Assembly (NCBI GenBank): GCA_038243415.1
Contig: JBBSRD010000001.1
Span: forward strand, 1 to 49,209
Direction: 5' to 3'
From: Actinomycetales bacterium
GTDB taxonomy: Bacteria > Actinomycetota > Actinomycetes > Actinomycetales > Quadrisphaeraceae
Length of the DNA stretch: 49,209 nucleotides
The notes below the pieces were generated by a model that did not search any database, was not told the origin of the DNA, and saw nothing but the letters and a program-made list of their open reading frames with translations. Shown here piece by piece: positions 1 to 21,278 of the stretch. How positions within the stretch are numbered: the first letter of the stretch is position 1; every line of letters begins with the position of its first letter. Position numbers and translations under genes: made by a program.

Positions 1-562
1 CGCGGCGCCGAGCACCCAGTCCGCGGGCATCGGCTCCTGCTCGGAGACGGCGCGCTCGAGGCGGTCGCGGTCGAGGAAGCGCTCCAGCTCGGCGCGCCCC
101 GTGGCGGTGCGGCCCAGGACCGTGCGGCGGTAGGCCACGGTCGCGGGGCGGTAGTACCGGAAGGCGGTGTGCTGCAGCGACCCGTCGTCGTTGCGGATCT
201 GGGGCGCGACCATCCCGCAGGTGCCGTCGGCGTCCAGGTGCGCGGCGAGGACGTCGAGGCAGCCGTCGTCCACGCGGACGTCGGCGTTGAGGACCATCGC
301 GTACTCGTCCGTGCTGGCGAGCAGGCCGCGGTTGACCAGGGCCCCGAAGCCGACGTTGCGGGGGACCGGCACGTAGGTCACCGGCAGGCGGTGGTGGTCG
401 ACGCGCGGGCGCAGGTCCGGCTGGGCCTCGGAGTCGACGACGAAGACCTCGCCGAGACGCTCGTTGCACGCGTCCGCGAGGGCGTCGAGGCAGCGCAGGA
501 GGGTCTCGGGGGAGCGGTAGTGGGTGATGACGACGCTGACGCGCGGCGCAGGGCGAACCATG
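1..562 (-). CDS. Family 2 glycosyltransferase (partial; C-terminus lies beyond the left edge)
   Basis: Not in the ORF track because it runs off the edge. Reverse complement from ATG at 562 reads MVRPAPRVSVVITHYRSPETLLRCLDALADACNERLGEVFVVDSEAQPD...PRNVGFGALVNRGL...MVLNADVRVDDGCLDVL, a typical GT-A/GT2 N-terminal fold. Confidence 0.8.
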
Positions 563-638
563 ACGCTCCTTGCAGGCGGAGGTTGCTGTGTGTGCAGCAC
601 TGGTCTCTTTGGGTAACCCGCAACGTAGTCCGGACCGC

Positions 639-2090
639 TCACCGAGCGTGCGGGAAACGCCAAAGAAACTCACTTTGTGCCAGCACGTATCGACGCAGAG
701 TGCTCCAGCGGGACGGCCTGGTCCGCTCGGGAGCGCCGTCACGCCCGGCGACGTCGGCGAGGAAGCGCTCCAGGTCCGCGGGGGACCCGCTGGCGTGCAG
801 CGCGGAGGCGGGCTCGTCCGCGGCGTCGACGAAGGCCCGACGACCCCGTCCGCCGGCAGCGAGCGCGAGGTGCGCGGGCCGGGGGCCCAGCCCCACCCAG
901 GACCTCGCGAGCCGCCACGCGGGGGTCCGCCCGCCGGCGGTGACCAGCGGCGGGAACCGGGCGTCGACCACCCGCTGCAGCGCCGCGTCGAGCGCGCCGA
1001 CCGCGCGCTGCTGCAGCGACGTGCCCCGGCGCAGCGACGACGCGGTGCTCAGCGCCCCGGGGACGTCGAGGGCGCCCGGCCCGAGCATCGCCGCGGCGCG
1101 CACCAGCGTCCCGGCGACGGCGCGCGGGGCGCGCCAGTCCCTCGCTGCGGCGGCGACCTCGCGCCAGCCGCCGGGCGTGGAGGGGGCGGCGGCGGCCACG
1201 TCGGCCATCCACCCGAGCCGGTCGGCCCCGGACGCGGCGGCGTGGACGCACAGGTGCACCAGGGTGTCGGCGTCGCCGAGGGTGGGGACCGCTGCTCCGC
1301 CGACGTCCACGGCCCCGGAGCGCTCGAACAGCGCCGCCGTGGTGGTGCCGACCCCGCGCGAGCGCACCCGCGTGGAGGTCAGCGCCCAGTGCAGGTCGAC
1401 GACCGTCCCCGAGGGCGCGAGCAGGTGCACCTCGGAGGGCACCACGTCGGCGAGCAGGGTGAGGTTCACGTCGGCCAGGCGCCATCCCGCGCCGGTGGCC
1501 GCGGCGAGCGCGGCGCCCAGGTCGGCGGGGGCGACGAGCAGGTCGAGGTCGTTCCAGGTCCTCGCGTCCGGGCGGGCGTAGCGGGCGGCGACCGCGGGGC
1601 CCTTGACCACTTGCCAGGCGATCCCCGCGGCGTCCATGAGGGCGCGCCAGGCGAGGAGGTCCGAGAGGGTCCGCAGGTGGCGCTCCACCCCGGCGGCGTA
1701 GGCTCGCTCGGCCTCGGCGGCGACGTCGGGCGCCAGCCCGTCGCGCCGCTGCCAGAGGTGCCCGAGCACCCGGTGGTGGGCGCGCCAGGAGGAGGCGTCG
1801 ACGGTCGGCGGGGGCTCGAGCGCCAGCGCCGTGACGGCGTCCGCGAGGCGAGCACCGTGCTGAGGTCCGGGACGGGTCCCGAGGTGGGCCCCGACCAGCG
1901 GCGCGCCGGCCGCCGCGAGGCGCAGCAGCGGGTCCGACGGCTTCTCGGCGTCGACCTCGCGGGCCGCCTCCCCCTCCAGGACCACGCACCTCCCGAGGCG
2001 CGGGCTGAACAGGGTCACCTCGCCGTCCAGGCCGACCCACGTGGCCGGGCCCGCCCTCACGAGCCCGGCCCCCACCGACGCGGCCCTCAC
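639..2090 (-). CDS. Nucleotidyltransferase-family protein (NTP_transf_5-like), probable lasso tailoring enzyme
   Basis: This is the protein-like part of listed ORF 639..2675. The GTG at 2090 overlaps the upstream stop (GTGA). Motifs seen: ARTWNDLDLLVAPADLGAA, VVDLHWAL, HLCVHAAASGADRLGWMADV. The rest of the listed ORF upstream of 2090 is Arg/Pro-rich and overlaps the ABC gene. The start codon is uncertain. Confidence 0.7.
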   Translation of the reverse strand: MRAASVGAGLVRAGPATWVGLDGEVTLFSPRLGRCVVLEGEAAREVDAEKPSDPLLRLAAAGAPLVGAHLGTRPGPQHGARLADAVTALALEPPPTVDASSWRAHHRVLGHLWQRRDGLAPDVAAEAERAYAAGVERHLRTLSDLLAWRALMDAAGIAWQVVKGPAVAARYARPDARTWNDLDLLVAPADLGAALAAATGAGWRLADVNLTLLADVVPSEVHLLAPSGTVVDLHWALTSTRVRSRGVGTTTAALFERSGAVDVGGAAVPTLGDADTLVHLCVHAAASGADRLGWMADVAAAAPSTPGGWREVAAAARDWRAPRAVAGTLVRAAAMLGPGALDVPGALSTASSLRRGTSLQQRAVGALDAALQRVVDARFPPLVTAGGRTPAWRLARSWVGLGPRPAHLALAAGGRGRRAFVDAADEPASALHASGSPADLERFLADVAGRDGAPERTRPSRWSTLRRYVLAQSEFLWRFPHAR

Positions 2091-4018
2091 GCGTCGACCT
2101 GCTGGTACCCCGCGGCCTGCAGCATGAACAGCTCGGCGTACAGCCCACCCGCGGCCATGAGGGCGGCGTGGTCGCCGACCTCGACGACGCGGCCCTCGCG
2201 CAGCACGGCGATCCGGTCGGCGCTGCGCACCGACGCGAGCCGGTGGGTGATGAGCACGACGGTGCGCCCGGCGAGCAACGTGCGCACGTGCCCGAACAGC
2301 TCGGCCTCCGCGCGGGGGTCCAGGGCGGCGCTCGGCTCGTCGAGCAAGAGGACGGGGGCGTCGCGGTACAGCGCACGGGCCACCGCGAGGCGCTGCCACT
2401 GGCCGCCGGAGAGGTCCGCGCCGCCGGGGGCGAAGCGCGAGAGCTGGGTGTCCACGCCGCTCGGCAGGGCCGCGAGCTCCTCCTGGAGCCCCACCTGGGC
2501 GAGCGCGCGCGCCACGGCGGCCGCGCGCTCCTGCGGGTCGGGGCGGGCGCCGACGCGGCCGAGGGCCACGTTGTCGCTCGCGGACGTCTCCCACCGGACG
2601 AAGTCCTGGAAGGCCACGGCCACCTGCTCGCGCACGCTGGCCGGGTCGAGGTGGCGCAGGTCGGCGCCGTCCCACGTCACCGCGCCGGCGGTGGGCTCGA
2701 CGAGGCCCGCGAGGAGCTTCGCAAGGGTGGACTTGCCGCTGCCGTTCTCCCCGACCAGGGCGAGCACCTCGCCGCGGCGCAGCTCCAGGTCGACACCGCT
2801 CACCGCGTCGCGCACCGCGCCCTCGTACCGGTAGCCGGCGCCGCGGGCTGCCAGCGCCTCGCGCAGCGGTCCGGCAGCAGGCAGCGGCCCGGCTGGGGGC
2901 AGCGCGCCAGCCGTGGGCAGGGGGCCGTCGCGCACGTCGACGACGTCGTCGTCGTCAGGGTCCGGTGCCGCCCCCGCGTCGGCTCCGCCGCCGTAGCGGT
3001 GCCGGAACAGCGCGAGGTCCCCCAGGAACAGCGCGGCCTCGTGGACCTTCCCGGCGCTGGTCGACGTCGCCGCCACCCGCCCGGACAGGAACCGCACCGC
3101 GAGCAGCGCCGCGGCGGCCGTCCCCAGGCTGATCGCCCCGCCGGCGACCAGCAGCACCACGCCCACCATCGAGGCCGCCACCACCAGCCCCGTGGCCGCC
3201 GCGGCCACCACGCCGACGCGCTGCTGGCCGCTCGCGTGGGTGCGCAGCCGGGCCAGCGCCGCGGCGTCGGCCCCCAGCAGGGTGGTCAGGAGGTGGTCGA
3301 CGAGCCCGTAGGCGCGCACCTCCCCGGCCTGCTCGCGCCCGGTGAGGACCTGCTGGAGGTACAGGCGGCGCCGCAGGTGCGTGATCTCCGTCGTGGAGAA
3401 GGCGTGCTCCGCCCGCGACGTGCGCCGCGAGGCCCACACCACCGGCAGCGCGGCCAGCAGCAGCACCGGGGTGATCCACGGCGCGATCACCAGCACCGAG
3501 GCCGCCATCGCCGCGATGGCCACCAGGCCCACCAGCGTCGTCACCAGAGCCTGGGTGATCGCCATCGAGCGCCCGGCCGCGGCGCCGCGCACCCGCTGGA
3601 GCAGGTCGTAGAACGCCGGGGACTCGTACGTGGCCAGCGGCACGCGTCCCGCGACGGCGACGACCCCCTGGGTGGTCCGCTGGGTCACGTGCTCGCCGAG
3701 CACCCGCCCGGCCGGCCCCGCGAACGCCGCGAGCACCCCGGAGAGCAGCACCAGTCCGGCCATGAGGCCCACGCCGGCCAGCACCCTCACGCCCACGTCG
3801 AGCCCCGCGACCGAGACCCGCGCCCCGCCCGGGTCGGACAGGGCGTCGATCACGGTGCGGGCGGCGAAGACCTGCCCCACGGTCGCCAGCACCCCGACCG
3901 CCTGGACCCCCAGCACCAGGGCCGCCCGGCGCGGGTCCGCGGTGACCACGAGCACGACGGCCTCGCGCACCACGCTCAGGCGCTCGCGGGCCGAGCCTCT
4001 GGCCGGCGCAGGGCTCAC
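2087..4018 (-). CDS. ABC exporter, fused TMD-NBD (lasso D-type transporter)
   Basis: Walker A GENGSGKST, signature LSGGQWQRLAVARAL and Walker B VLLLDEPSAALD are present, with a hydrophobic multi-helix N-terminal half. The GTG at 4018 overlaps the kinase stop (GTGA). Confidence 0.85.
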   Translation of the reverse strand: MSPAPARGSARERLSVVREAVVLVVTADPRRAALVLGVQAVGVLATVGQVFAARTVIDALSDPGGARVSVAGLDVGVRVLAGVGLMAGLVLLSGVLAAFAGPAGRVLGEHVTQRTTQGVVAVAGRVPLATYESPAFYDLLQRVRGAAAGRSMAITQALVTTLVGLVAIAAMAASVLVIAPWITPVLLLAALPVVWASRRTSRAEHAFSTTEITHLRRRLYLQQVLTGREQAGEVRAYGLVDHLLTTLLGADAAALARLRTHASGQQRVGVVAAAATGLVVAASMVGVVLLVAGGAISLGTAAAALLAVRFLSGRVAATSTSAGKVHEAALFLGDLALFRHRYGGGADAGAAPDPDDDDVVDVRDGPLPTAGALPPAGPLPAAGPLREALAARGAGYRYEGAVRDAVSGVDLELRRGEVLALVGENGSGKSTLAKLLAGLVEPTAGAVTWDGADLRHLDPASVREQVAVAFQDFVRWETSASDNVALGRVGARPDPQERAAAVARALAQVGLQEELAALPSGVDTQLSRFAPGGADLSGGQWQRLAVARALYRDAPVLLLDEPSAALDPRAEAELFGHVRTLLAGRTVVLITHRLASVRSADRIAVLREGRVVEVGDHAALMAAGGLYAELFMLQAAGYQQVDA

Positions 4019-5055
4019 CGGGTCGCCGCCACGGCGTCGCGCAGGTCGACGGTGCCCGCTGGCTCGACGGTGCCCGCCGGCCCGACGACGGCAGCCCGCT
4101 CCACGAGGGCCCGCCCGCTCTCCGGCGGCCACGGCGGGCCCCACGGGAGCACCGCGCGGGCGACGGGCACCGAGCGCACCAGCGCGGACAACCCCTCGAA
4201 GCCGGCGCGGACCCACCCGGGGTGCTCCAGGCCGACCAGGCGCGGGTACCGGGAGAGCTCGAGGAGCGCCGCGGCTCCGGTGAGCGGCTCGAACCGGGGG
4301 CCGGCGGTCTGCCGGTCCGGGGTCGGGACGAGCACCTCGACGAGGGGGAGCGGGGCCCCCGTGTCACCGTCGTCGCGCGCGGCGCCGGCGTGGCCGCCGG
4401 GGATCAGCGCGGTGCGCCCGTCGGCGGTGGACCGTGACCGGGCCTGCCAGCCGCTCCGTGCGTCCTCGCCGGGCAGCGCCAGCCCGGCGGCGGCCGGGCG
4501 CAGGCGGGACTCCGTGGTCCCCGGCCAGCACACCCACCCCCCACCGTCCGGTGACGGCGCGACGCGCAGCACGTCGTCGGAGACCAGCCGGGCGCCGGCC
4601 CGGCACGCCAGCACCCCCGAGGTCGACTTGCCCATCCCGGAGGCGCCCACCATCGCGACGGCGCGCCCGTCCACCGCGTAGGCCGTGGCGTGCAGCACCA
4701 GGTGCCCCCGCGCCGTGAGCAGCGCGGTGGCGACGTAGCCGTTGAGCAGCACCGCCGCCATGCCCGGGTCGGTGCGAGGGTCCAGGTGCAGGTCCACCTC
4801 GGTGAGGCTGGTGTCGATGCGGGCGCTGGCGAGGCGGGGGAAGTGCAGCAGCAGGCCGCGCCCGTCGCGCACCAGCGCGAACCGCAGGTGGCTGCCGGCG
4901 TGCAGCCGCGCCAGGACCTCGCCGTCGGGGAGCCCGTCGGCCACCGGGGCCTCAGGGCGGAGGCGGACCAGGACGTCGGCCGGTTCGAGGCTCGGGCGGT
5001 CCAGGTGGAGGTCGACGTCGCTGTCGATGACGAGGCCGTGCGCCGCCACCCTCAC
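4015..5055 (-). CDS. HPr kinase-like serine kinase (lasso precursor kinase candidate)
   Basis: This is the protein-like C-terminal part of listed ORF 4015..6252. It has the P-loop AMVGASGMGKSTSG followed by LVSDDV. The GTG at 5055 overlaps the B2 stop (GTGA). Confidence 0.75.
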   Translation of the reverse strand: MRVAAHGLVIDSDVDLHLDRPSLEPADVLVRLRPEAPVADGLPDGEVLARLHAGSHLRFALVRDGRGLLLHFPRLASARIDTSLTEVDLHLDPRTDPGMAAVLLNGYVATALLTARGHLVLHATAYAVDGRAVAMVGASGMGKSTSGVLACRAGARLVSDDVLRVAPSPDGGGWVCWPGTTESRLRPAAAGLALPGEDARSGWQARSRSTADGRTALIPGGHAGAARDDGDTGAPLPLVEVLVPTPDRQTAGPRFEPLTGAAALLELSRYPRLVGLEHPGWVRAGFEGLSALVRSVPVARAVLPWGPPWPPESGRALVERAAVVGPAGTVEPAGTVDLRDAVAATR

Positions 5056-5564
5056 GGCGCGGCGCTCCCCACCCTCACGGCGGGGACCAGCGAGGTCAGA
5101 GGCGTGTACTCGTGGGCGCTCGCGTCCAGGGCGAGGCCGCCGACCTCCACCCACGCGTGCGCGCGCACGCGGGCCGCGTGGTCGCCGGGGGCGACGCCGA
5201 TCCGCACCACCGGGTCCAGGGAGCGCAGCCGCCGGGCGAGCACGAGGGAACGGCGCAGGCACATCGCGGAGCCGGGCGGTCCGTCCTGGCCGAGCGGCCA
5301 CCGGCGCATCACCGCGGCGGTGGCGCGCAGGGGCTCCGACGTCCAGCGCGGCAGGCGGGCGAGCGGGGCGTCCGGGGCGGGCTCGCCCGAGCCGTGCGAT
5401 GGGGCCGACGGCGCAGCGACGACCAGCCCGAGCGCGCGGGCGGTCTCCGGGAGGGAGCGCCGCCGCAGCGCGAGCTCCACGCGGGCGGCCGCGGCCAGGC
5501 TCAGCGCCAGGTGCCACGCGGGCAGGCGTCGCAGCGCCGGGAGGGGGTGGAGAGCGGTGGCCAT
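5052..5564 (-). CDS. Lasso peptide biosynthesis B2 protein (transglutaminase-like leader peptidase)
   Basis: The internal ATG at 5564 of listed ORF 5052..5729 shares one nucleotide with the cyclase stop (TGATG). Motifs seen: AMCLRRSLVLARRL (catalytic Cys) and VRAHAWVEVGG (His). Confidence 0.85.
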   Translation of the reverse strand: MATALHPLPALRRLPAWHLALSLAAAARVELALRRRSLPETARALGLVVAAPSAPSHGSGEPAPDAPLARLPRWTSEPLRATAAVMRRWPLGQDGPPGSAMCLRRSLVLARRLRSLDPVVRIGVAPGDHAARVRAHAWVEVGGLALDASAHEYTPLTSLVPAVRVGSAAP

Positions 5565-6931
5565 CACGCCACCGCCGCGACGGAAGGGACGGCGGGCGCG
5601 GCCCCGGGTGCGGTGCGGCTGTGGTGGGCCGCGACGCCGACGGGGCGGCGCGGCAGGCCGGCGTCGTGCAGCCACGCCGCCTGGAGGGCGAGCATCGTGC
5701 CCGCCCACGGGGCCTCGCTGAGCCAGCACGCCCGCAGCGCTGCAGGGTCGACGAGGCCGTCATCGAGGCCCTGTCCGCTCCACCGCTGGGCGAAGGCTCG
5801 CGCCGCCGGCCCGAACGTCGGGGTGTGGAACCGCGCCTTGGTGCTCCGGTGCAGCACGGCGTGCGGCAGCAGCCCGTCGAAGACGCGGACCATCGCCGAG
5901 GTGCGGTTGCCGAACCCGAAGGGGTGGCCCTCGGCCGCGAGCGCGGCGGTGAAGCGGGCGTCGAGCAGCGGGTGGGCCTCCACCGCTCCGGCCGCAGCAG
6001 CCAGCGCGCCCGAGGTGGCGAGGCCGAGGGCGAACCCGCGGTCGCGCCGGTGGGCGGCGAGGGCGTCCGCGAACAGCAGGGGCTTGCCGCGCTCGCCGGC
6101 ACGGTCCGTCGCGCGGGTCCGTGCCAGGCCGGCCGGGGTGAGCCAGCCGGGCGCCGGCAGGTCGCGCTCCCTGCGGCGCCGGGCGCCGGCCCGGACCGCC
6201 TCGGGCGCCAGCGCCACGGCCGCGGCGGGCCGGTTCGCGCGCAGCCGCCCACGGCGACGGCGCAGCAGCGCCAGGGGTGCGCAGCGCTGCCCGGCGATCA
6301 CCTCGTCGCCGCCCTGGCCCGTCAGCACCGCGGCGCCCCGGGCGAGCGCCCACATCGAGGTGAGGCTGTGCACCGGGGCCGACCAGAGCAGGCCGTGCTC
6401 GCGCAGGCCGGCGGTGGCGGTCTCCCCGAGGAGGTCGAAGTGCGGCGCCGAGGGCACCCGGACGTGCTCGACGGGGGTGCCGGCCGCGGCGAGGTGGTCG
6501 AGGACGGCGTGCTGCCACTCCCGCTCGTCGGCCTCGGGGTCGCCCGGGAAGTCGTGGGTCGCGGCGATCGGCGCGGGCAGGCCCTCACGGGCGGCGACGT
6601 GGGCGGCCAGCGCCAGCACCGCGGAGGAGTCGCGCCCGCCGGAGAACGTCACCACGCAGGGGCCGCGCTGCAGGTGCTCGAGCAGCACGCCCTCCAGGGC
6701 GGTGCGGGCGGTGCCGCGGGGTGCGGGGTCGCGAGCCAGGTCTCGGAGCCGGTTGGCGGGTCCCGAGGCGGGTCCGGCATGACCGAGGGTCGCCCCGGCG
6801 CCGCCGTCGTGCAGGTGGCCGAGCGCCACCTCGTCGCCGGTGGGGCGGTACAGGCCGTCGGCGTCCAGCGCGGAGGTGAGGTCGAGGCTGGTGAACCCCG
6901 ACGTGGGCACGGCCAGCGTCGTGGGGCTCAC
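5564..6931 (-). CDS. Asparagine synthetase-like lasso cyclase (C protein), short N-terminal domain
   Basis: PP-loop VVTFSGGRDSSAVL is present. The start overlaps the B1 stop (ATGA, 6928-6931). Only about 95 residues precede the PP-loop. Confidence 0.85.
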   Translation of the reverse strand: MSPTTLAVPTSGFTSLDLTSALDADGLYRPTGDEVALGHLHDGGAGATLGHAGPASGPANRLRDLARDPAPRGTARTALEGVLLEHLQRGPCVVTFSGGRDSSAVLALAAHVAAREGLPAPIAATHDFPGDPEADEREWQHAVLDHLAAAGTPVEHVRVPSAPHFDLLGETATAGLREHGLLWSAPVHSLTSMWALARGAAVLTGQGGDEVIAGQRCAPLALLRRRRGRLRANRPAAAVALAPEAVRAGARRRRERDLPAPGWLTPAGLARTRATDRAGERGKPLLFADALAAHRRDRGFALGLATSGALAAAAGAVEAHPLLDARFTAALAAEGHPFGFGNRTSAMVRVFDGLLPHAVLHRSTKARFHTPTFGPAARAFAQRWSGQGLDDGLVDPAALRACWLSEAPWAGTMLALQAAWLHDAGLPRRPVGVAAHHSRTAPGAAPAVPSVAAVA

Positions 6932-7194
6932 GGGGCGGTGGTCTCCAGCAGCTCGCGCTCTCGCAGGTCGGCGAGGAGGGCAGCGACGTCCGCGGAGGCC
7001 TGAGGCGCGTCGACGTCGTAATCGGCCAGCAGCAGGGCCTCCAGCTCGGAGGCGGTGCGCTCGCCGGTGGCCAGGGCGTCGACGAGGTCGGCGCCGGTGG
7101 CGTTGACCGCGAAGTACGTCGAGGTGCGGAGGTCCAGCAGCACGGCGTCCTCGCCGAGGCGCTGCCAGCTGAGGTCGGCGCTGCGCAGTCTCAC
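6928..7194 (-). CDS. PqqD-family RiPP recognition element (lasso B1)
   Basis: 88 aa: LSWQRLGEDAVLLDLRTSTYFAVNATGADLVDALATGERTASELEALLLADYDV. GTG start, with AGGAG 7 nt upstream. Confidence 0.85.
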   Translation of the reverse strand: MRLRSADLSWQRLGEDAVLLDLRTSTYFAVNATGADLVDALATGERTASELEALLLADYDVDAPQASADVAALLADLRERELLETTAP

Positions 7195-7240
7195 GTCGTC
7201 TCCTGGGGAGGCTCTTGAGCGGTTCTGGCGGGATGTTCAG

Positions 7241-7271
7241 CGAGGGGCGGCGCCTGTGGCGCCGCCCCTCG
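7241..7271 (-). terminator. Perfect hairpin CGAGGGGCGGCGCC-TGT-GGCGCCGCCCCTCG between the precursor genes and B1; probable partial terminator or attenuator
   Basis: 14-bp G+C stem with a 3-nt loop, read directly. It lies in the 92-nt gap between the A2 stop (7287) and the B1 start (7194). No U-tract follows it. Confidence 0.55.
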
Positions 7272-7286
7272 GGTGGTCGGCCGTGC

Positions 7287-7439
7287 TCAGCTGCCGGTGA
7301 ACCCGGTGAAGCCGTCGGGGTTGTTGACGTCGATCGGGGTACCGAAGGCGACGTCGACGTTGTTGGCGCCGCCGCCCTGCTGGGTCAGGGCTCGGACGGT
7401 TCCGACGGTGGTGATGCAGGGAGTCTCATAAATCTTCAT
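7287..7439 (-). CDS. Lasso precursor peptide A2 (50 aa): MKIYETPCITTVGTVRALTQ / QGGGANNVDVAFGTPIDVNNPDGFTGFTGS
   Basis: This is the last 50 codons of spurious listed ORF 7287..8417. ATG at 7439 has GAGGA 7 nt upstream. The leader fits Y-x-x-P-x-(L/I)-x3-G-x5-T-x, and the peptide ends in Ser. It sits immediately upstream of B1/C/B2. Confidence 0.8.
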   Translation of the reverse strand: MKIYETPCITTVGTVRALTQQGGGANNVDVAFGTPIDVNNPDGFTGFTGS

Positions 7440-7482
7440 GGCGTGTCCTCGGAGATCAGGGGAGTGCAGGGCGACAGCGGGG

Positions 7483-7626
7483 TCAGGTGTTGAACGGAGG
7501 CTCTTCAGGCCCGGTGGGCAGGAGGCTCGACCCTGAGCCGTCCTCGACTCCCAGCGGTCCGTCCAGCTGGGTGAGGGTGCGGACCGTGCCGGCCTTGATG
7601 AGGGACGGTGAGGCGTAGCGGCGCAT
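7483..7626 (-). CDS. Lasso precursor peptide A1 (47 aa): MRRYASPSLIKAGTVRTLTQ / LDGPLGVEDGSGSSLLPTGPEEPPFNT
   Basis: Not in the ORF track (too short); translated by hand. The leader aligns with A2 position by position (Y4, P7, L/I9, G13, TVR, LTQ). No clear Shine-Dalgarno sequence is present. The start lies 31 nt after the upstream GT stop. Confidence 0.7.
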   Translation of the reverse strand: MRRYASPSLIKAGTVRTLTQLDGPLGVEDGSGSSLLPTGPEEPPFNT

Positions 7627-7657
7627 GGGCCAGACGCTAGGTGACCGAGTGTCAGAT

Positions 7658-8650
7658 TCATGGGACGCGCGCCCTCGGTGTCGTCGCTGGTGCGTCCAGC
7701 CGAAGGGGCTCCGGATCCGCCGTGCGACGCACGGAACGAGAGGCCGCCTCGAGCAGCACCTCGCGGGTGAGCCGCTCCGGGGGGCAGCAGATCGCCAGCC
7801 CGCGCGCGTCGAGCTCCGCGGCGACCTGCAGCTGGTGGTCGTCGACGTGCTCGCCGTGCGCTGCGAGCCGGGGCACGAGCACCGGGCACAGCCCCGCGTC
7901 CATGGCGGTCAGGGCCGCGCCGGTGCCGGAGTGCGCGACCACCACGTCGGCGCGGTGGACGGCGGCGAGCATCTCGTCGTGCGGCACCGACTCGCGGGCG
8001 TCGATCGCGCGGCCAGTGGACTGCAGGCCGGCGGTGTCGGTGACGCCGGTCTGCCAGAGCACGTCCGCTCCGTCCAGCGCGGGCGCCGCAGCGTCCAGCA
8101 TCCGCCGGAAGCCGTAGGACTCCGTGGTGCCGAGGGTGACCACGGCCCGCCGCAGCGCCACGTCGGCGACGAGGCGAGCGGGCCCGGGCTCGAAGGAGTC
8201 GAAGATCGAGCCGGCGTAGCGCCACGGGCCGCCCGCCCACGCGGGGTACTGCGTGAACGTCGCGATGCGCGGCAGCGGACGCAGGATCCGCCCTGTCATG
8301 GAGGGCCCCGTCGCTCGGGCCGCGGTCTCGATGAAGTACGCGGGGATGCCGAGCGCGGCGGCGACGGGCAGGACGTTCACAGCGAGCGACGAGCCGGTGC
8401 TCACCACGGCGGTCCACCGCTTCGACGCGACGACCTTGGCGCCCAGCACCTGGTTACGCGCGATGTTCAGCACGTCCCGCGGAGCGGCGTAGGTGGCGAA
8501 GCGGACGTCCTCCCCCGCGAGCAGGCCGCGGCTCAGGCCGGTGTCGAAGGTGAGCCAGGTGCGCTCCTCGTCGGCCCAGGGCAGGCGGCCGGCGAGCTGG
8601 TGGAGCTGCTTGAGGTGTCCGCCGCCGGAGCACGCCAGGAGGATCGCCAC
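7658..8650 (-). CDS. Fused Alg14-like/Alg13-like (GT28 C-terminal domain) glycosyltransferase
   Basis: N-terminal half: VAILLACSGGGHLKQL...STGSSLAVNVLPVAAALGIPAYFIETAARATGPSMTGRIL (Alg14/PssD-like). C-terminal half: VVTLGTT...ADVVVAHSGTGAALTAMDAGLCPVLVPR...DDHQLQVAAEL (Alg13/Cps14G-like). I prefer the GTG at 8650, 1 nt after the upstream stop. The listed ORF start at 8719 is the alternative. Confidence 0.75.
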   Translation of the reverse strand: MAILLACSGGGHLKQLHQLAGRLPWADEERTWLTFDTGLSRGLLAGEDVRFATYAAPRDVLNIARNQVLGAKVVASKRWTAVVSTGSSLAVNVLPVAAALGIPAYFIETAARATGPSMTGRILRPLPRIATFTQYPAWAGGPWRYAGSIFDSFEPGPARLVADVALRRAVVTLGTTESYGFRRMLDAAAPALDGADVLWQTGVTDTAGLQSTGRAIDARESVPHDEMLAAVHRADVVVAHSGTGAALTAMDAGLCPVLVPRLAAHGEHVDDHQLQVAAELDARGLAICCPPERLTREVLLEAASRSVRRTADPEPLRLDAPATTPRARVP

Positions 8651-8651
8651 G

Positions 8652-9725
8652 TCAGCGGGCCGCCGTGTCGTGAGCAGCGCGGTTGGCGGTGACGTCGATG
8701 ACGGCGTCACGGCAGCCACGGGTCACCGGGCCGGAGTCCGAAGCGACCGTCAGCGGTGGTCGCGGCACGTCCGCCCATCCCTGCAGCCACAAGGACCGCT
8801 GTGCGAACGCGGTGCGCCAGGCGTGGTCGCCACCGGTGACCTTCTCGCGCAGCGCACGAAGGCCGACCCCGAGGGCGAGCATCGTGCGGCTCGCCGTCCA
8901 CGTCATGGCGCCGGCATCGCGCTGATAGAGCGTCGCCTTGCCCCGCATCACCATGAGGACCTTCGCCGCGGACGAGGACGTGGCTCCCTTGGCGTGGACG
9001 ACCGCCGCGGCGGGGGTGAACGAGGGCCGGTAGCCCGCTGTCCTGGCGCGCACGGAGAGGTCGACGTCCTCGCCGTACATGAAGAAGGACTCGTCGAAGC
9101 CGCCGAGCATCTCGAAGACCTCGCGGGGAGCCATGAGCAGGCACCCGGTGATGACGCCGACCTCGCGCACGGTGTCGTAGCCCCACCACCCCAGCGACTC
9201 GGGGTCGAACGTACGGGTCCCGGCGAAGACGGTGCTCAGCCCGGTGGCGAAGCAGGCCTGGCTCCACAGGGTCGGCTCGCCCCACACCGACGCGGGGTCG
9301 GGCTCACCGTCGGGGGTGAGGGTGCGGCCGCCGACGAGCCCGCGGGAGGGGTCCTCGTCGAGGAAGGCAGCGAGTGCGTCGACCGCACCGGGGAGCACCT
9401 CGGTGTCGGGGTTGAGGAACAGCACCCGCTCACCGCGGGCCAGCGACGCGCCGAGGTTGCAGGCCCTCCCGAAGCCGACGTTCTGCTCCAGCTCGATAAG
9501 GCGCAGGCGCGTGAGGTCAGCGGTCAGCGTCTCGCGCAGCGGAGGCATCGAGGCGTTGTCGACGAGGACCACCTCATGGGTGAGGGCCGGCTCTCCCTCG
9601 CCGGCCAGGGAGGCCAGGCAGCGGTCCAGCCACTGGGGGGCGCCATAGCCGACGACGACGATCGAGACCTCGACGGCCGGTGCCTGACCACCGGTCGGGC
9701 CGGTCTCTGCCGGGGGGTGAACCAT
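8652..9725 (-). CDS. Family 2 glycosyltransferase
   Basis: VSIVVVGYGAPQWLDRCLASL...VLVDNAS...NVGFGRACNLG...FLNPDTEV...FFMYGEDVDLS. I prefer the ATG at 9725, which has GGAGAGGAG upstream. The listed start 9734 is a GTG. Confidence 0.85.
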   Translation of the reverse strand: MVHPPAETGPTGGQAPAVEVSIVVVGYGAPQWLDRCLASLAGEGEPALTHEVVLVDNASMPPLRETLTADLTRLRLIELEQNVGFGRACNLGASLARGERVLFLNPDTEVLPGAVDALAAFLDEDPSRGLVGGRTLTPDGEPDPASVWGEPTLWSQACFATGLSTVFAGTRTFDPESLGWWGYDTVREVGVITGCLLMAPREVFEMLGGFDESFFMYGEDVDLSVRARTAGYRPSFTPAAAVVHAKGATSSSAAKVLMVMRGKATLYQRDAGAMTWTASRTMLALGVGLRALREKVTGGDHAWRTAFAQRSLWLQGWADVPRPPLTVASDSGPVTRGCRDAVIDVTANRAAHDTAAR

Positions 9726-9844
9726 CCGAAACACTCCTCTCCACAGCGCATGGGCCGTCGCTTGGTTGCAGAGTGCGACGGATTGTCACAGTGAAACAGG
9801 CGCAGGCGGGCACGGGGAGCAGACCGGAACACTGCCGCAGCAGG

Positions 9845-9985
9845 CCACCGGACTCCACCAGGGTCGGCGGCACAGGCGTCGCAAGCTGCGGTGAAGGCGG
9901 GGACCACAGCGATGAAGGCGCGACACTGCTCAGCGTTGAGCGTCGTGAAGTCCCGATCGAAGCGTGGCGTCGACTCGTACTTCAC
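9845..9985 (-). pseudogene. Possible truncated toxin gene of a toxin-antitoxin pair
   Basis: The GTG at 9985 overlaps the upstream stop (GTGA). The first ~47 codons (VKYESTPRFDRDFTTLNAEQCRAFIAVVPAFTAACDACAADPGG) look protein-like. After that, listed ORF 9524..9985 becomes Arg/Ser/Pro junk and runs into the GT2 gene. Confidence 0.3.
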
Positions 9986-10269
9986 GCCGGGGCCGGGCCG
10001 TGGCTGCCCGCAGCCTCTTCTCGTCCTGCGTGTTCGTCGAGCTCTTTCAGGTGCTCGACGAACACGTCGGACGACTCGTGCCGGACCACCTCGCCCCGCT
10101 GCAGGTGCTCCTCGACCCGGTGCTCACCGCCCTGCCAGCGCTCGCTCCAGAACCATGCCTGGTCTGCCGGGACTGCAGCGGTGGGACGTACCTCCAGCAC
10201 GCCGTCCTCGCGCTCGATGATCTCCACCTGCGCGCCGGGCCGGTCAAGGCCGTAGCCCCGGATCGCCAC
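9982..10269 (-). CDS. AbrB/SpoVT-like antitoxin-type small protein (N-terminus uncertain or truncated)
   Basis: VAIRGYGLDRPGAQVEIIEREDGVLEVRP...AWFWSERWQGGEHRVEEHLQRGEVVRHESSDVFVEHLKELD. The looped-hinge-like segment plus the WFW..W motif recall MazE/AbrB-type antitoxins. The GTG at 10269 is the first canonical in-frame start after the upstream gene. Confidence 0.4.
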   Translation of the reverse strand: MAIRGYGLDRPGAQVEIIEREDGVLEVRPTAAVPADQAWFWSERWQGGEHRVEEHLQRGEVVRHESSDVFVEHLKELDEHAGREEAAGSHGPAPA

Positions 10270-10321
10270 GCACGCGACGGCGTCGAGCCGAGCCAGCAGC
10301 TGGTCCGGCCCTGCGCTCCGG

Positions 10322-11188
10322 TCAGCTCCACCCGTTCTTGCCCGTGGCCAGCCGGCGCACCCGCCGCCTGGCATGGATGAACTTTCGCCGCCACCCGATG
10401 GAGTGGCGCAGGTCGAGCGTGGCGACCTGCACGTGAGCAGCGTCGTTCCTCGTCTGTGCCAGCCACTCAGCCAGGGTGGTGGCGCCCGTCGCCCTCGCCG
10501 AGAGCGGCATCGCCGCCTGGTAGGCGGCCTCGTCCGTGAAGGCTGTCAGCGGATGACGAGGATCGTCGAGGTGCTCCTCGGCGACGAGCGGCAACGGCCA
10601 CCCGTTGACGTAGCCGGCCTTCGCGGCCTGCAGGCACCAGCCGACGAAGCTCAGCCCGGGGCGTAGCGGACCCAGCTCGCGGACGAGGTCGCGGCGCAGC
10701 ATGTGCCCGCTGCCCTGCACCCAGTGGTTGCGCAGCAGGCGGACACCGTGAACCTCGGCGATCTTGGGCGAGGCGCGCACCTCGTCCCAGTCCTCGGGCA
10801 GGAACCGCCACGATCCCAGCACCCCGAGACCGTCCCAGGCGTCCAGCGCGCTCGACAGGTGCTCGACCCAGCCGGGCTCCATCAGCGAGTCGTCGTCGAC
10901 CTTGGAGACGAACCGCCCCTCCGCCTCCGTCCACACCCAGTTGATCGCCGCCTGCAGGCCCAGGTTCTCGGGGGAGTGGTGGAAGCGGTGCAGCCGCGGG
11001 TGGTCCAGGTGCGGTTCGATGACGTCGAGCACCTCGCGGTCGTCCCCGTTGTGCCACACCCACACCCGCCCGTCCGCCGGCATCGTGGAGAGCAGCCGCG
11101 GCAGCGACAGCGAGGTGTAGCGGGGACGGTCGTGGGTGATCAGCACGACGTCGAGCCCGGTCCCCGGTGTGGCGGGGCCCGGGCTCAT
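10322..11188 (-). CDS. GT-A fold (GT2-like) glycosyltransferase
   Basis: The internal ATG at 11188 overlaps the upstream stop (ATGA). LDVVLITHDRPRYTSLSLPRLL...VSKVDDDSLMEPGW. Confidence 0.7.
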   Translation of the reverse strand: MSPGPATPGTGLDVVLITHDRPRYTSLSLPRLLSTMPADGRVWVWHNGDDREVLDVIEPHLDHPRLHRFHHSPENLGLQAAINWVWTEAEGRFVSKVDDDSLMEPGWVEHLSSALDAWDGLGVLGSWRFLPEDWDEVRASPKIAEVHGVRLLRNHWVQGSGHMLRRDLVRELGPLRPGLSFVGWCLQAAKAGYVNGWPLPLVAEEHLDDPRHPLTAFTDEAAYQAAMPLSARATGATTLAEWLAQTRNDAAHVQVATLDLRHSIGWRRKFIHARRRVRRLATGKNGWS

Positions 11189-12036
11189 GACGCCACCCGG
11201 CTGGAGCGATCGTGGTTCCAGCCGATGACCGCGCCGCCAGCCAGCGCGAGCCGGAGCCGGACCAGCACGGTGAGCGCGACGAAGGAGCCCACCCACGGCC
11301 ACGTCCGGGGCGAGCGCAGGAGAGGCAGGAGCGCCCGCGCCCCGGTCACCCCTGGCTGGGGGACGAGCGCTATGCCGCTCGCAGCGAGCTGCACGTTGCC
11401 GGTGCGGCCGCGCAGCGCGCGCGCGACGTACGAGCGCACCGTGCGCGGCGGACGGACCTCATAGGTGCCCTCGCTCGTCGTGCGCTCCCCTGGGGCGAAG
11501 GAGCGGCGGACGTAGTCGTCATCGGCTATCACGTCGGGGAAGGGAGCGATGCGGGCGTGGCCCGCCTCGGACACGGCGTACACGCCCGAGCCGAGGTAGC
11601 CCTCGCGCGTCACCGGCAGAGAGGCCCACGCCCGGTAGTGCCAGGCCACCACGGGGGAGACCCCGTCAGTGACGAGCCGGACGTGCGGGGCACCTGCGAG
11701 CGCGGGGCCAGCCCTGAGGGCGGCGGCGAGGGTCCGGGCATCGCGGGTGCTGAGGACCGCGTCGGCGTCGAGGTAGATGCGCGGGAACGACGATGCCGCG
11801 GCGTCGCCGGCGTTGATCGCACCGATCTTCCCGGGCTCTGGCAGCTCGATGACCCGGACGTCGCGGTGACGCCGGGCGCGCTCGGCGGTGTCGTCGCTGC
11901 AGGCGTTGGCGGCGACGACCACCTCGAGCTCGCCGGGCTCCGCGTCCGCCATCAAGGCAGCGAGACAGCGGTCGATGACCTCCGCCTCGTCATGGGCAGG
12001 CACGATCACGGACATCTCGCTCACCACACGGTTCAT
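11185..12036 (-). CDS. Family 2 glycosyltransferase
   Basis: MSVIVPAHDEAEVIDRCLAAL...VVVAANACSDDTAE...GKIGAINAGD...IYLDADAVL. Confidence 0.85.
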   Translation of the reverse strand: MNRVVSEMSVIVPAHDEAEVIDRCLAALMADAEPGELEVVVAANACSDDTAERARRHRDVRVIELPEPGKIGAINAGDAAASSFPRIYLDADAVLSTRDARTLAAALRAGPALAGAPHVRLVTDGVSPVVAWHYRAWASLPVTREGYLGSGVYAVSEAGHARIAPFPDVIADDDYVRRSFAPGERTTSEGTYEVRPPRTVRSYVARALRGRTGNVQLAASGIALVPQPGVTGARALLPLLRSPRTWPWVGSFVALTVLVRLRLALAGGAVIGWNHDRSSRVAS

Positions 12037-12122
12037 GCTAGTGACTCTGTGTGGCGAGTGCGGGCGCTCGCGGGTATTGGGTCAGGGCTCTCCGAAGCAT
12101 CGAGAGGTCAGTCCCAGACACC

Positions 12123-13274
12123 TCAGCGGGCGCGGGCGGTGGGGACCTCCGAGCCGCTGCCCGTGAACCGGTTTCCGCCGGCCAGCAGGACCGAGCGCGG
12201 GGACAGCACCTGGCCGTACCGGCTCGTCGTCCCGAACGTGTTGTTGCGGATGACGAGGTCGGTCGCGGTGATGTCGGCGCGCACGTTGAGCGTGTAGTTC
12301 CCGCCGTCGAGGTGGTTGTCCTCGATCAGGACGCGTTCGACCTTGCGGCCCCCGGTCTCAGAGCCCAGCATGATCGCGGCGTTGTTGTAGTCCCCGCGGC
12401 TGGTGTTGTTCGCGTCGAGCGTGTTGCCCCGGACGACGACGTCGGTCGCGGACGTGGTCTGCACGGCGTCGGAGTGCAGCGTCCGGATGCGGACCAGGTC
12501 GTGGATCCAGCTGTTCTCGATGAGCACCCGGTGGCCGAAGCGGGCGCCGTCGGCGCAGCCGTGGACGTTCACCCTGCGCAGGGTGTACCGGCTGTACCCG
12601 ACACAGACCGCGGTGGAGCCGCGCCCGTCGATCTCGACGTCCTCCACGGTCAGGCGGTCGCCGGAGTCGGCGATCGCGACGGCGACCTGGCCCTCGGCTG
12701 AGGCGCACCTGATGCGGCTGGAGCGGATGGTCACGTCTTTCGCCCTCACCTGGACGCACCCGTCGATGTCCAGACCCTCGACCACGGCTCCGTCCTGCGT
12801 GATGCTGATCGAGCCCGAGGGCGCGAGCCTGGTCCCGGCGGGGACGCCGGTGCTCGCGGCTCCGGCGCGCGAGCCGGGTGCTCCGGGATCGACCGCCCTG
12901 AACCACCGCGTGACGACACGGGTCCCGCGGTCGGGCGTCTCGATGACCGTCCGGAGCTTCGTGAGGCCGCGGAGCCCCGACAGGTCGACGTCGGCGCTCG
13001 CCGTGAACGCCCCCCGATACGGCTCGATGCTGGTGTCCTCCGCCAGCGCCCGGCCGTCGACCGTGAACTGCACGCGATCGGCGGCCGTGCTGGAGATCGC
13101 GTCGAGGCGCACGAGCCCGGCCGGCACGCTGGACAGCGTGATGCTCGACCCGGCGTAGCGCACCTGGTCGGGGCTCGCGGCCTCGGCGTGGGCGGGGACG
13201 CTGACCGCGGACAGGGCGAGCGCGACGGCACCGACGAGGACGAGACGGCGCACCGCGGCGCGGGCAGCGGTCAC
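12123..13274 (-). CDS. Secreted right-handed beta-helix protein, paralog 1 (candidate glycanase, lyase or epimerase)
   Basis: The GTG at 13274 overlaps the upstream stop. Signal peptide VTAARAAVRRLVLVGAVALALSAVSVPAHA. Shared core: RYTLRRVNVHGCADGARFGHRVLIENSWIHDL...LHSDAVQTTSA...NNAAIMLGSETG...DNHLDGGNYTLNVR. Confidence 0.7.
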   Translation of the reverse strand: MTAARAAVRRLVLVGAVALALSAVSVPAHAEAASPDQVRYAGSSITLSSVPAGLVRLDAISSTAADRVQFTVDGRALAEDTSIEPYRGAFTASADVDLSGLRGLTKLRTVIETPDRGTRVVTRWFRAVDPGAPGSRAGAASTGVPAGTRLAPSGSISITQDGAVVEGLDIDGCVQVRAKDVTIRSSRIRCASAEGQVAVAIADSGDRLTVEDVEIDGRGSTAVCVGYSRYTLRRVNVHGCADGARFGHRVLIENSWIHDLVRIRTLHSDAVQTTSATDVVVRGNTLDANNTSRGDYNNAAIMLGSETGGRKVERVLIEDNHLDGGNYTLNVRADITATDLVIRNNTFGTTSRYGQVLSPRSVLLAGGNRFTGSGSEVPTARAR

Positions 13275-14443
13275 GGCGCGACCACGCGGACCGGTCCGCC
13301 GGTGGCGGCGTAGACGTTGCCGGTCCCGAGGGGCACCTGTGCGGGCGTCAGGACGGAGCCGAACCTGGTGGAGTCGCCGAAGGAGTTGTCGCGGATCACG
13401 ACGCCGGAGACGTTGATGTCCCCGCGGACGTTGAGCGCGTAGTTGCCGCCGTCGAGGTGGTTGCCCTCCACGATGAGCCGGGTGACGATCCGGCTCCCGG
13501 TCTCGGACCCGAGCATCAGAGCCGCGTTGGCGAACTTGCCGTCGGGCTCCCGCGCGTCCAAGGTGCTGCGTCGGATCACGACGTCGGAGGCGGACGTCGT
13601 CTGCAGGGCGTCGGAGTGCAGCGTCCCGATGCGCGCGAGGTCGTGCACCCAGCTGTCCTCGATCAGGACCCGGTGACCGAAGCGTGCCCCGTCGGCGCAC
13701 CCGTGCAGGTCCACCCGGCGCAGGGTGTAGTCGCCCCATCCCACGCACACCGGCGTGGTGCCCAGCCCGTCGACCTCGACACCCTCGAGCGTGAGGTTCT
13801 TCGCCCCACCACCCAGGAGGACGGCGACGCCGCTGCTGGGGCCATCACAGCGGATCCTCGTGTTCCGGATGGTCACGTCGGAGGCGCGGACGTTGACGCA
13901 TCCCTGCACGTCCAGGCCGTCGACGACGGTGCCGGCCCGCCAGATGCTGAGCGCGCCGCTCGGCGTGAGGGTTGTGCCGGAGGGCACCCCGGTGAGGGAG
14001 GTGTCGGGGAGCGGCACGCCGGAGACCGGCGGTGCGTCGGGGGACGAGTTGCCCGACGGCGGAGGGGGGATCGCCCGGAAGAACTTCCACACCCTCCGGC
14101 TGGACTTCCCGGTCTGGAACTTCACGGTCAGCTCCGTGAGCCCGTGGAACCCCGTCAGGTCCACCTCGGTGGAGGCGAGCCAGCTGTCACCCTCCTGGAC
14201 GACCGTCGTGTCCTGGCCGAGCACCTGGGAGCCGATGGAGTACGTCGCAGAAGATGCCGGGGTCGTGGAGAGAGCATCGATGGTGACGACCTGCGCCGGT
14301 ACCCGCGCCATGTTGAGGCTGGCGCCGTCGTAGCGCAGGAAGTCGCTGGCTGCGGCGGCGGGTGATGCGCCGGCGATGGTGACGAGCACCGCGGCGAGCG
14401 CCGCTGCTGGGGCGATCCGGCGGGCGCGCGGTCGTGCGGTCAT
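13271..14443 (-). CDS. Secreted right-handed beta-helix protein, paralog 2
   Basis: The ATG at 14443 lies inside listed ORF 13271..15967. Signal peptide MTARPRARRIAPAAALAAVLVTIAGASPAAAA. It has the same conserved core as paralog 1: DYTLRRVDLHGCADGARFGHRVLIEDSWVHDL...LHSDALQTTSA. Confidence 0.7.
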   Translation of the reverse strand: MTARPRARRIAPAAALAAVLVTIAGASPAAAASDFLRYDGASLNMARVPAQVVTIDALSTTPASSATYSIGSQVLGQDTTVVQEGDSWLASTEVDLTGFHGLTELTVKFQTGKSSRRVWKFFRAIPPPPSGNSSPDAPPVSGVPLPDTSLTGVPSGTTLTPSGALSIWRAGTVVDGLDVQGCVNVRASDVTIRNTRIRCDGPSSGVAVLLGGGAKNLTLEGVEVDGLGTTPVCVGWGDYTLRRVDLHGCADGARFGHRVLIEDSWVHDLARIGTLHSDALQTTSASDVVIRRSTLDAREPDGKFANAALMLGSETGSRIVTRLIVEGNHLDGGNYALNVRGDINVSGVVIRDNSFGDSTRFGSVLTPAQVPLGTGNVYAATGGPVRVVAP

Positions 14444-14554
14444 GGGGTCCTCCGTCGATGGTGATCGCGAGGGCCATCGACATGAGATCACGCACCGTGA
14501 ACCCTGGTCGGTCATCTCCACCCGTTCGGTGCAAGCGCCACCTAGCCTGGCCGG

Positions 14555-16764: not shown

Positions 16765-16854
16765 GCCCGTCGCCTGGCCGTCGCTCCCACGGTGAGGGAT
16801 GGTACCGATCGTCACCATCCGTGGTTGGCAGATGCCAGGATGTGACGAACCCCC

Positions 16855-18611: not shown

Positions 18612-18625
18612 ACGCCCCCGCCGAC

Positions 18626-21217: not shown

Positions 21218-21278
21218 TGCTCCTTCACGACGTCGTGGCTCGGAGCGCCACGACGAGAGGAACGGGAGGACGCACGGC

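Follow-up and report, generated by a model that had tools for sequence, protein, structure and literature searches.

Two tandem predicted lasso peptide precursor genes with a common leader and dissimilar cores in a kinase- and nucleotidyltransferase-containing actinobacterial operon

Paeninodin, a lasso peptide of Paenibacillus dendritiformis C454, reportedly contains a nine-residue ring closed between Ala1 and Asp9. The paeninodin cluster and those of the kinases ThcoK and SyanK combine split B1 and B2 proteins with a cyclase (C), an ABC exporter and an HPr-kinase-like enzyme, and before cleavage, and assisted by B1, the characterised kinases phosphorylate the linear precursor at its C-terminal Ser (PMC9266682, PMC8498205). 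The psm cluster of Bacillus pseudomycoides DSM 12442 encodes, besides the kinase PsmK, an NTP_transf_5-type protein, PsmN; pseudomycoidin has an Ala1-Glu9 ring and a (poly)phosphorylated C-terminal Ser to which one or two hexoses are subsequently added, hexose addition to the phosphate requiring PsmN (PMC6993621). A kinase and a nucleotidyltransferase (BsfK and BsfN) are also present in the bsf lasso cluster of Bradymonas sediminis, in which B1 stimulates both phosphorylation and cleavage (PMC10368454). Here two tandem precursor genes, A1 and A2, and the operon which they head are described from a 49,209-nucleotide stretch of an Actinomycetales genome of the Quadrisphaeraceae (contig JBBSRD010000001.1 of assembly GCA_038243415.1), referred to throughout as the window.

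The cluster is a lasso system of the paeninodin/pseudomycoidin kind and not a new kind of system. Its enzyme set is that of the psm cluster, although psm differs in gene order, has one precursor gene, belongs to a low-G+C Firmicute and is not reported to be flanked by a polysaccharide locus. Paeninodin, ThcoK and SyanK come from Firmicute or proteobacterial hosts and from clusters with a single Ala1 precursor, whereas the window encodes two precursors with predicted Leu1 and Gln1 residues, A2 sharing the C-terminal Ser and A1 ending in Thr, together with a PsmN-like protein and a cyclase lacking the N-terminal domain. The bsf system differs in that BsfK targets ring residue Ser3 rather than the C-terminus, the leader has Ile at position -2 and the precursor ends in Asp. 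Overall the window is set apart by its actinobacterial host, single-domain cyclase, predicted Leu1 and Gln1 cores, Thr-ended core and location at the end of a polysaccharide locus. First residues other than Gly, Ala, Ser or Cys are shared, with Thr(-2) retained, by metanodin, from a gammaproteobacterial metagenome, and by citrulassins of Streptomyces, although their clusters are unrelated and have no kinase or nucleotidyltransferase; Asn1 was shown for metanodin in 2025, with Gln predicted at that position in a relative (PMC12670498), and a Leu1-Asp8 linkage, and hence an eight-residue ring, was shown for citrulassin N (PMC12971885). Gln1 has been predicted before, in the metanodin relative and implicitly by the NCBIfam lasso_cyano model. 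The interpretation favoured here, and considered probable, is that one class II split-B lasso operon contains both A1 and A2 as functional precursor genes, with predicted Leu1-Asp9 and Gln1-Asp9 products.

Translation of the minus strand of 7200-7720 returned exactly the two tandem open reading frames (ORFs) proposed in an initial annotation of the window. Such frames alone mean little, since short ORFs are plentiful in DNA of 72-80% G+C and 110 ORFs of at least 30 amino acids (aa) were counted within 16 kb. As that annotation had recognised, neither gene is visible as such in the ORF track from which it was made, A1 being shorter than the 60-aa cut-off and A2 forming the in-frame tail of a 376-aa GTG ORF at 7287..8417. 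The longer ORF overlies, out of frame, a gene for a GT28-like glycosyltransferase (8719..7658) with a G+C content at third codon positions (GC3) of 0.92, whereas the part of the ORF upstream of A2 has GC1, GC2 and GC3 values of 0.92, 0.75 and 0.58; it was rejected as a real gene because this composition is that of a frame shifted against the glycosyltransferase gene. Both A1 and A2 are called as genes in a public protein collection (P0001, P0007), so that their description as unlisted applies to the ORF track and not to public data.

Both peptides fit the leader motif YxxPxLx3Gx5Tx previously assigned to them, with Thr at residue 19, the penultimate leader position. The two leaders are identical at 10 of 20 residues and align with a score of 51, compared with -9.6 +/- 7.5 for 2000 shuffles, none of which scored as well, whereas the cores align with a score of -19, which 80% of shuffles equalled or exceeded. 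These data bear out the description of A1 and A2 as one shared leader joined to two unrelated cores. A pattern comprising aromatic-xxPx-aliphatic-x3Gx5Tx followed by 10-45 residues to a stop, irrespective of core composition, had exactly two matches, A1 and A2, when all six frames of the 49-kb window were translated, against a mean of 0.07 in dinucleotide shuffles, and revealed no further precursor in the window. A1 passes the cut-off of 19 for the NCBIfam model NF033521 (lasso_leader_L3) with 19.8 bits and has no match to NF033528 (lasso_cyano), while a Pfam scan matched neither peptide.

Absence of the small ORFs from homologous loci had been named in advance as grounds for abandoning the lasso assignment, and the opposite was observed, both ORFs being conserved under purifying selection. 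Homologues were identified in five clusters for A2 (72-88% identity) and in one for A1 (80% identity over an aligned 85% of the query). The clade is known from about nine contigs; orthologues of the precursors occur on at least nine contigs, and the homologue contigs carry the same B1-C-B2-K genes. Among the related loci, numbered here with an L, the A2 family is present in L001-L008 and the A1 family in L003, L004, L005 and, in more diverged form, L007. The L007 cyclase is only 64% identical to that of the window, yet the whole operon is kept in the same gene order, including the N gene, with one A1-type and one A2-type gene. Ratios of nonsynonymous to synonymous polymorphism (pN/pS) were summed over all sequence pairs, using codons 1-37 for A1. 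For A2 the ratio was 0.48 in the annotated frame (0.39 in the core and 0.57 in the leader) and 0.80-2.54 in the other five frames, and for A1 it was 0.38 as against 0.58-2.78; in both genes substitutions are thus most synonymous-biased in the annotated frame, and GC3 is 0.86 for A2 and 0.83 for A1. When 1.84 billion representative proteins were searched with a profile, only 11 further A2 relatives were recovered, defining a wider A2 family with the pattern T-x-[QKHS]-GG[GP]-x3-4-DVPxGTP, and no relatives were found among the JGI metagenomes scanned with A1 and A2 alignments. Judged by motif, position, conservation and selection, A1 and A2 are real, conserved lasso precursor genes, and all elements of the initial lasso interpretation that lend themselves to sequence analysis hold.

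To place the leader-core junction in a wider context, the cyclase family was surveyed. A GTDB scan based on an alignment of four close cyclases gave patterns that were too specific, none being confirmed, and a profile of 33 diverse cyclases was used instead against 185,579 GTDB species genomes. This detected 415 cyclase relatives, every named one from Actinomycetota (Occultella, Isoptericola, Georgenia, Nocardioides, Jiangella, Motilibacter, Amycolatopsis thermalba, Acidimicrobiia, Solirubrobacterales and Gaiellaceae) and all with at most 46% identity to the window cyclase, and 80 loci were kept. The leader pattern, which demands Thr at -2 and to which alternative registers are invisible, identified 94 precursors in 78 of these loci, with 91 unique cores. 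Counted from Thr(-2), the frequency of Asp or Glu is 0.66 at core position 9, 0.21 at position 8 and 0.02-0.18 elsewhere. Position 1 is occupied by G (42), A (19), T (7), Q (6), M, E and V (3 each), I, L and S (2 each), R (1) and N (1); predicted Gln1 cores include those of the cultured strains Motilibacter deserti (QSTAGSQTDVPIGTP...) and Amycolatopsis thermalba (QNLFGSSPD...). The rarity which the initial annotation implied for a two-core tandem and for a non-canonical first residue was not upheld, tandem precursors that share a leader but differ in their cores being present in 16 of 78 loci and a predicted first residue other than Gly or Ala in 30 of 91 cores. A first residue of Gly, Ala, Ser or Cys, which neither A1 (Leu) nor A2 (Gln) has in the Thr(-2) register, is a typical rather than a strictly defining feature of lasso peptides, because Leu1 and Asn1 have been demonstrated experimentally and because of this proportion of other residues. 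The remaining lasso-family sequence features are present, apart from a C-terminal Ser in the case of A1 only.

In an ungapped alignment of the homologues, Thr-x is followed by Q, R, A, L or M and an acidic residue is fixed eight residues later; in the wider A2 family recovered by profile search, K, H or S also occurs in this column. The -1 residue varies in the A2 family (Q/A) with the next Gln invariant, and the first core residue of the A1 family is L, M or A. Both window cores have Asp at position 9, A1 also having Glu8 as previously noted, and position 9 alone is acidic in every core of the A1 and A2 types. Alignment of the leaders of homologous clusters, a check proposed in the initial annotation, thus favours the Thr(-2) register, and together with the position-9 peak and the nine-residue rings of paeninodin and pseudomycoidin it supports a Leu1-Asp9 ring in A1 and a Gln1-Asp9 ring in A2, with both cleavage site and ring size predicted. 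Several other junctions were observed. The A2-type precursor of L007 (L007:7509-7661) has a close relative, P0107, with a predicted Lys1 instead of Gln1 (LTA-KGGGIDQVD...), and others in the wider A2 family have His or Ser at this position. Among L012, L020, L028, L062, L063, L082, L088 and L090, junctions of the form LTQ-[G/A/S]KPGxxFDFP (acid at position 8) alternate with LTQ-MSKPGxxFDFP (acid at position 9); the two forms differ by one residue inserted precisely where leader and core meet, so that close relatives must differ either in ring size or in the Thr(-2) register. In L023, L025, L031, L051 and others the sole nearby acid is at position 10 (GYKPLMQHLD, EFDPTGPILD, GNKAPVTSLD, GMHHVPTSLD), which would imply 10-residue rings or a different cut.

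A number of observations weigh against the interpretation of A1 and A2 as two functional Leu1/Gln1 precursors. A2 falls below the cut-offs of both NCBIfam precursor models, with 16.5 bits on NF033521 and 20.8 bits on NF033528 (cut-off 33), although it covers positions 3-35 of the 35 in the latter and two of its distant relatives from the profile search, P0112 (36.4 bits) and P0116 (37.3 bits), with LTQ-QGGG/QTGG junctions, pass. The matches of the kinase to Pfam and NCBIfam models are likewise below cut-offs, and A1 has few bulky residues that could serve as plugs. A free N-terminal Gln can cyclise to pyroglutamate, and a literature search for a ring-forming Gln1 lasso peptide found no experimental example. 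Moreover Gly is present one to three residues later in A2 and two residues later in A1, making a shifted cut chemically possible. The precursors could then be real but have their leaders removed later, so that A2 would start GGGANNVD..., close a Gly1-Asp8 ring and place Thr at -3, and A1 would start GPLGVED..., close a Gly1-Asp7 ring and place Thr at -4; both products would then be of the canonical Gly1 type, with smaller rings. Rings of seven or eight residues are allowed, the acid at position 8 in 21% of survey cores and the one-residue ambiguity of the KPGxxFD group are in keeping with such a cut, GGG directly follows Gln in every A2-type core, and the first residues established up to Asn1 were Gly, Cys, Ser or Ala (PMC12670498). 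However, Thr(-2) is the best-established recognition element of B2, the lone exception found being Ile at the same position (PMC10368454), and metanodin posed the same dilemma, which experiment resolved in favour of Thr(-2) and Asn1 (PMC12670498), while Leu1 is proven in citrulassin N (PMC12971885). The homologues argue in the same direction: canonical Ala or Ser takes the place of Gln or Leu, with the acid still at +9, in the A1-type precursor of L007, in L013 and in P0113, and it is the residue before Gln that is variable, as expected of position -1, with Gln itself conserved. A1 would in addition have to tolerate Thr at -4 and use Asp/Glu7 of the shifted register as ring acceptor. A later cut is consequently regarded as rather unlikely, and the Leu1/Gln1 register is retained below.

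The remaining points against two functional precursors concern A1. Precursor copies number one to three per locus in the clade: L001 and L002 have A2 only, directly after the GT28 gene, the window, L005 and L007 have two, and L003 and L004 have three (A1, A2, A2'), with an extra A1 copy truncated by the contig end in L005 and, likewise, a second A2 copy in L006. Because the precursor complement varies across the clade, A1 is an accessory gene, yet one maintained under selection where present. Separately, a weak A1-like stretch (AVAGSVAALTRHDTGDDQEFGSLLPSEDPVTTT; tblastn E 1.3) was noted at 372-614 (+) of L008, 5' of its single A2-type gene; it has no YxxP motif or proper stop and may represent a decaying A1 copy. 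It could be argued from the absence of A1 in L001 and L002, and from this remnant, that A2 is the working precursor and A1 an accessory or decaying paralogue which is poorly translated or not processed and phosphorylated. Its C-terminal third is variable, with indels, and it ends in Thr, as do only 3 of the 91 survey cores, whereas 67 of 91 have the canonical Ser. As the initial annotation observed, A1 also lacks a clear Shine-Dalgarno (SD) sequence, none being found in the window, L003 or L004, whereas all A2-type genes in the related loci have a purine-rich SD at matching distance. On the other hand, the pN/pS and GC3 values and the NCBIfam leader match given above speak against a decaying gene, and all five A1-type sequences, that of the diverged L007 among them, keep the leader motif with Thr(-2), an acidic residue at position 9 and Thr at the C-terminus. 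The A1-type termini are PFNT, SFPT (in three) and ITT, and A2-type cores end in Ser in all ten sequences from related loci; the Ser and Thr ends noted originally are therefore each conserved within their own family, and the conservation of terminal Thr suggests that the terminal hydroxyl of A1 matters. The related kinase BsfK accepts a Ser-to-Thr replacement (S3T) at its own target site (PMC10368454).

The spacer between the GT28 stop and A1 is 31 nucleotides (nt) long and contains the -10-like hexamer TAGCGT, which is kept as TAGCGT or TACCGT at equal spacing in L003 and L004; the diverged L007 A1-type homologue has instead an SD, GGAAGGAG, followed by N6 and GTG. Leaderless transcripts are common in actinobacteria, and leaderless translation of A1 is in line with the conserved TANNNT placed 7 nt before its ATG, in which case a leaderless transcript of A1 and A2 may have TAGCGT as its promoter. 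A scan of 7150-7800 for sigma-70 consensus promoters and U-tract terminators found none. The unusual first codons of A2 pointed out in the initial annotation (ATT, TAT, ACT) are genuine and peculiar to the window, orthologues having ACC/AGC, TAC and ACG. That A1 is poorly translated, or not processed or phosphorylated by this machinery, is considered unlikely. That A1 and A2 are merely chance open frames coding nothing in G+C-rich intergenic DNA, as the abundance of short ORFs and the lack of Pfam matches might suggest, is effectively refuted by pN/pS, GC3 and the leader-pattern statistics, as well as by their position directly 5' of B1, the orthologues with frame-specific synonymous bias and the NCBIfam leader matches, and can be dismissed.

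The interpretation of A1 and A2 as two functional precursor genes is further consistent with the genes that follow them. The operon has the order A1-A2-B1-C-B2-K-D-N, all on the minus strand, with the precursors immediately 5' of B1 and the six downstream genes joined by 1- or 4-nt start/stop overlaps; the C start overlaps the B1 stop by 4 nt and the B2 ATG shares 1 nt with the C stop (Table 1). Genes for B1, which is the recognition element (RRE) for peptides made by ribosomes and modified after translation (RiPPs), for the protease B2 and for the cyclase C adjoin the precursors on the same strand, as is the case in class II split-B systems. B1 also matches NF033530 (lasso_PqqD_Strm; 6e-14) below the model cut-off. 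Usual lasso cyclases are about 550-650 aa long and possess an N-terminal glutaminase-like domain. Proteins of the present cyclase family are 370-510 aa long, the Asn_synthase domain of the window cyclase starts near residue 88, and the family profile aligns to AsnB residues 207-357 (the synthetase domain) only; by alignment, the N-terminal glutaminase-like domain is missing from this family. The window cyclase scores 18 bits on the cyanobacterial cyclase model NF033535 (cut-off 525), and a PDB sequence search with the cyclase alone gave no match; the literature searched on truncated lasso cyclases contained nothing informative.

Table 1. Positions in the window of the precursor genes, operon genes and associated elements
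Feature	Position	Strand	Description
A1 precursor gene	7626..7483	minus	ATG, 47 aa + stop; translation MRRYASPSLIKAGTVRTLTQLDGPLGVEDGSGSSLLPTGPEEPPFNT
A1 leader	7626..7567	minus	MRRYASPSLIKAGTVRTLTQ
A1 predicted core	7566..7486	minus	LDGPLGVEDGSGSSLLPTGPEEPPFNT; predicted Leu1-Asp9 ring, C-terminal Thr
A2 precursor gene	7439..7287	minus	ATG, 50 aa + stop; translation MKIYETPCITTVGTVRALTQQGGGANNVDVAFGTPIDVNNPDGFTGFTGS
A2 leader	7439..7380	minus	MKIYETPCITTVGTVRALTQ
A2 predicted core	7379..7290	minus	QGGGANNVDVAFGTPIDVNNPDGFTGFTGS; predicted Gln1-Asp9 ring, C-terminal Ser
TAGCGT, TANNNT -10-like hexamer	7634..7639	minus	7 nt upstream of A1 ATG
A2 Shine-Dalgarno GAGGA	7446..7450	minus	6 nt before A2 ATG
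14-bp G+C-rich stem-loop	7241..7271	minus	Between A2 stop and B1 start; CGAGGGGCGGCGCC-ACA-GGCGCCGCCCCTCG; no U-tract after
B1, PqqD-like RiPP recognition element	6928..7194	minus	88 aa, GTG, AGGAGA SD; PF05402 7.8e-16
C, single-domain Asn-synthase-like lasso cyclase	5564..6931	minus	455 aa; PF00733 6.5e-18, residues 88-406
B2, transglutaminase-like leader peptidase	5052..5564	minus	170 aa; PF13471 1.8e-08; NF033537 lasso_biosyn_B2 43.8 bits (cut-off 33)
K, HPr-kinase-like peptide kinase	4015..5055	minus	346 aa; weak Hpr_kinase_C and HprK-related matches over P-loop
D, ABC exporter, fused permease/ATPase	2087..4018	minus	643 aa; PF00005 5.4e-33; MsbA/bacteriocin-exporter-like NCBIfam matches
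N, PsmN-like 'uncharacterised nucleotidyltransferase'	639..2090	minus	483 aa; PF14907 NTP_transf_5 2.1e-32

The motif H-x14-GASGMGKS-x15-DD can be read intact in the translation of K, with the same spacing as BsfK H148, G163, G166, G168, K169, S170, D186 and D187 (PMC10368454). Only marginal matches to the P-loop of HPr kinases were obtained with K in a PDB search; 48 of the 80 survey loci have a detectable kinase homologue. Kinase homologues show a weak match to Pfam PF27840 'ScmC', a name for which a literature search returned no relevant papers. The 95-nt spacer between A2 and B1 has a minimum free energy of -44.7 kcal/mol (z -4.5), a stability that none of 200 shuffles reached, and its stem-loop is kept in L001, L003, L005 and L006, where a compensatory change replaces G-C by A-U once and a G-U wobble occurs once. 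Rfam gave no matches over the whole window, and therefore no known riboswitch or small RNA accounts for the intergenic conservation. Hairpins are commonly proposed as mRNA stabilisers or partial terminators in RiPP operons, and this one probably sets the ratio of precursor to enzyme in one of these two ways.

A1 may be translated from a leaderless transcript, and the hairpin after A2 would probably keep precursor mRNA in excess over enzyme mRNA. By analogy with the characterised homologous systems, the B1 RRE would bind the shared YxxPxL...G...T leader of either precursor and the HPr-kinase-like enzyme would phosphorylate the C-terminal hydroxyl of the linear peptide, A2 Ser50 and possibly A1 Thr47, a phosphate that the PsmN-like enzyme may afterwards extend. 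B2 would cut after Thr(-2)-Gln(-1), the short cyclase would link the Asp9 side chain to the alpha-amine of Leu1 in A1 or Gln1 in A2 in a nine-residue ring threaded by the tail, and the ABC protein would export the products.

A Wzx/Wzy-type polysaccharide locus (window 7658-22775) precedes the lasso operon on the same strand, the operon lying 31 nt downstream of it, and contains genes for GT28-like, several GT2 and GT1 glycosyltransferases, a beta-helix protein, a Wzy_C protein and a flippase. Two ORFs of 153 and 130 aa with no Pfam match break the series of glycosyltransferase genes at 9524-10374 (-), between GT2 genes at 8652-9734 and 10322-11302. G+C content is 77-80% over most of the lasso operon (window 1-7000), compared with about 70-73% for the polysaccharide genes and 67-69% at 21-25 kb. 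The same embedding was observed in L001 (1-9942), L007 (1-7114 and 14495-17290), L011 and L012, and it extends to distant relatives including Isoptericola; glycan genes lie within 6 kb in 27 of 55 survey loci with full flanks, a count made without a control set. Lasso clusters of Butyrivibrio with a kinase and nucleotidyltransferase also carry GT2 and EpsH genes. An extended proposal, that the operon makes two lasso peptides with nine-residue rings, one closed through Gln1 and one bearing a Thr-phosphate, and that the PsmN-like enzyme and the glycosyltransferases of the polysaccharide locus jointly glycosylate the terminal phosphate of both, is considered highly doubtful as a whole.

Two genes hidden by a length-filtered ORF track are now correctly annotated, and a compact 7-kb lasso operon is defined in an uncultured actinobacterial lineage. 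It belongs to a large family, represented by the 415 GTDB loci, with single-domain cyclases, mostly Ser-ended cores and predicted nine-residue rings, for which no characterised member was found. The operon offers a test case for Gln as the first residue used by a cyclase, predicted in several families, for the use of Thr by C-terminal lasso kinases and for the role of PsmN-like enzymes in actinobacteria. Were the proposed Gln1 ring, Thr-phosphate and glycosylation to prove true, it would constitute a phosphoglycosylated lasso system functionally tied to cell-envelope glycan synthesis.

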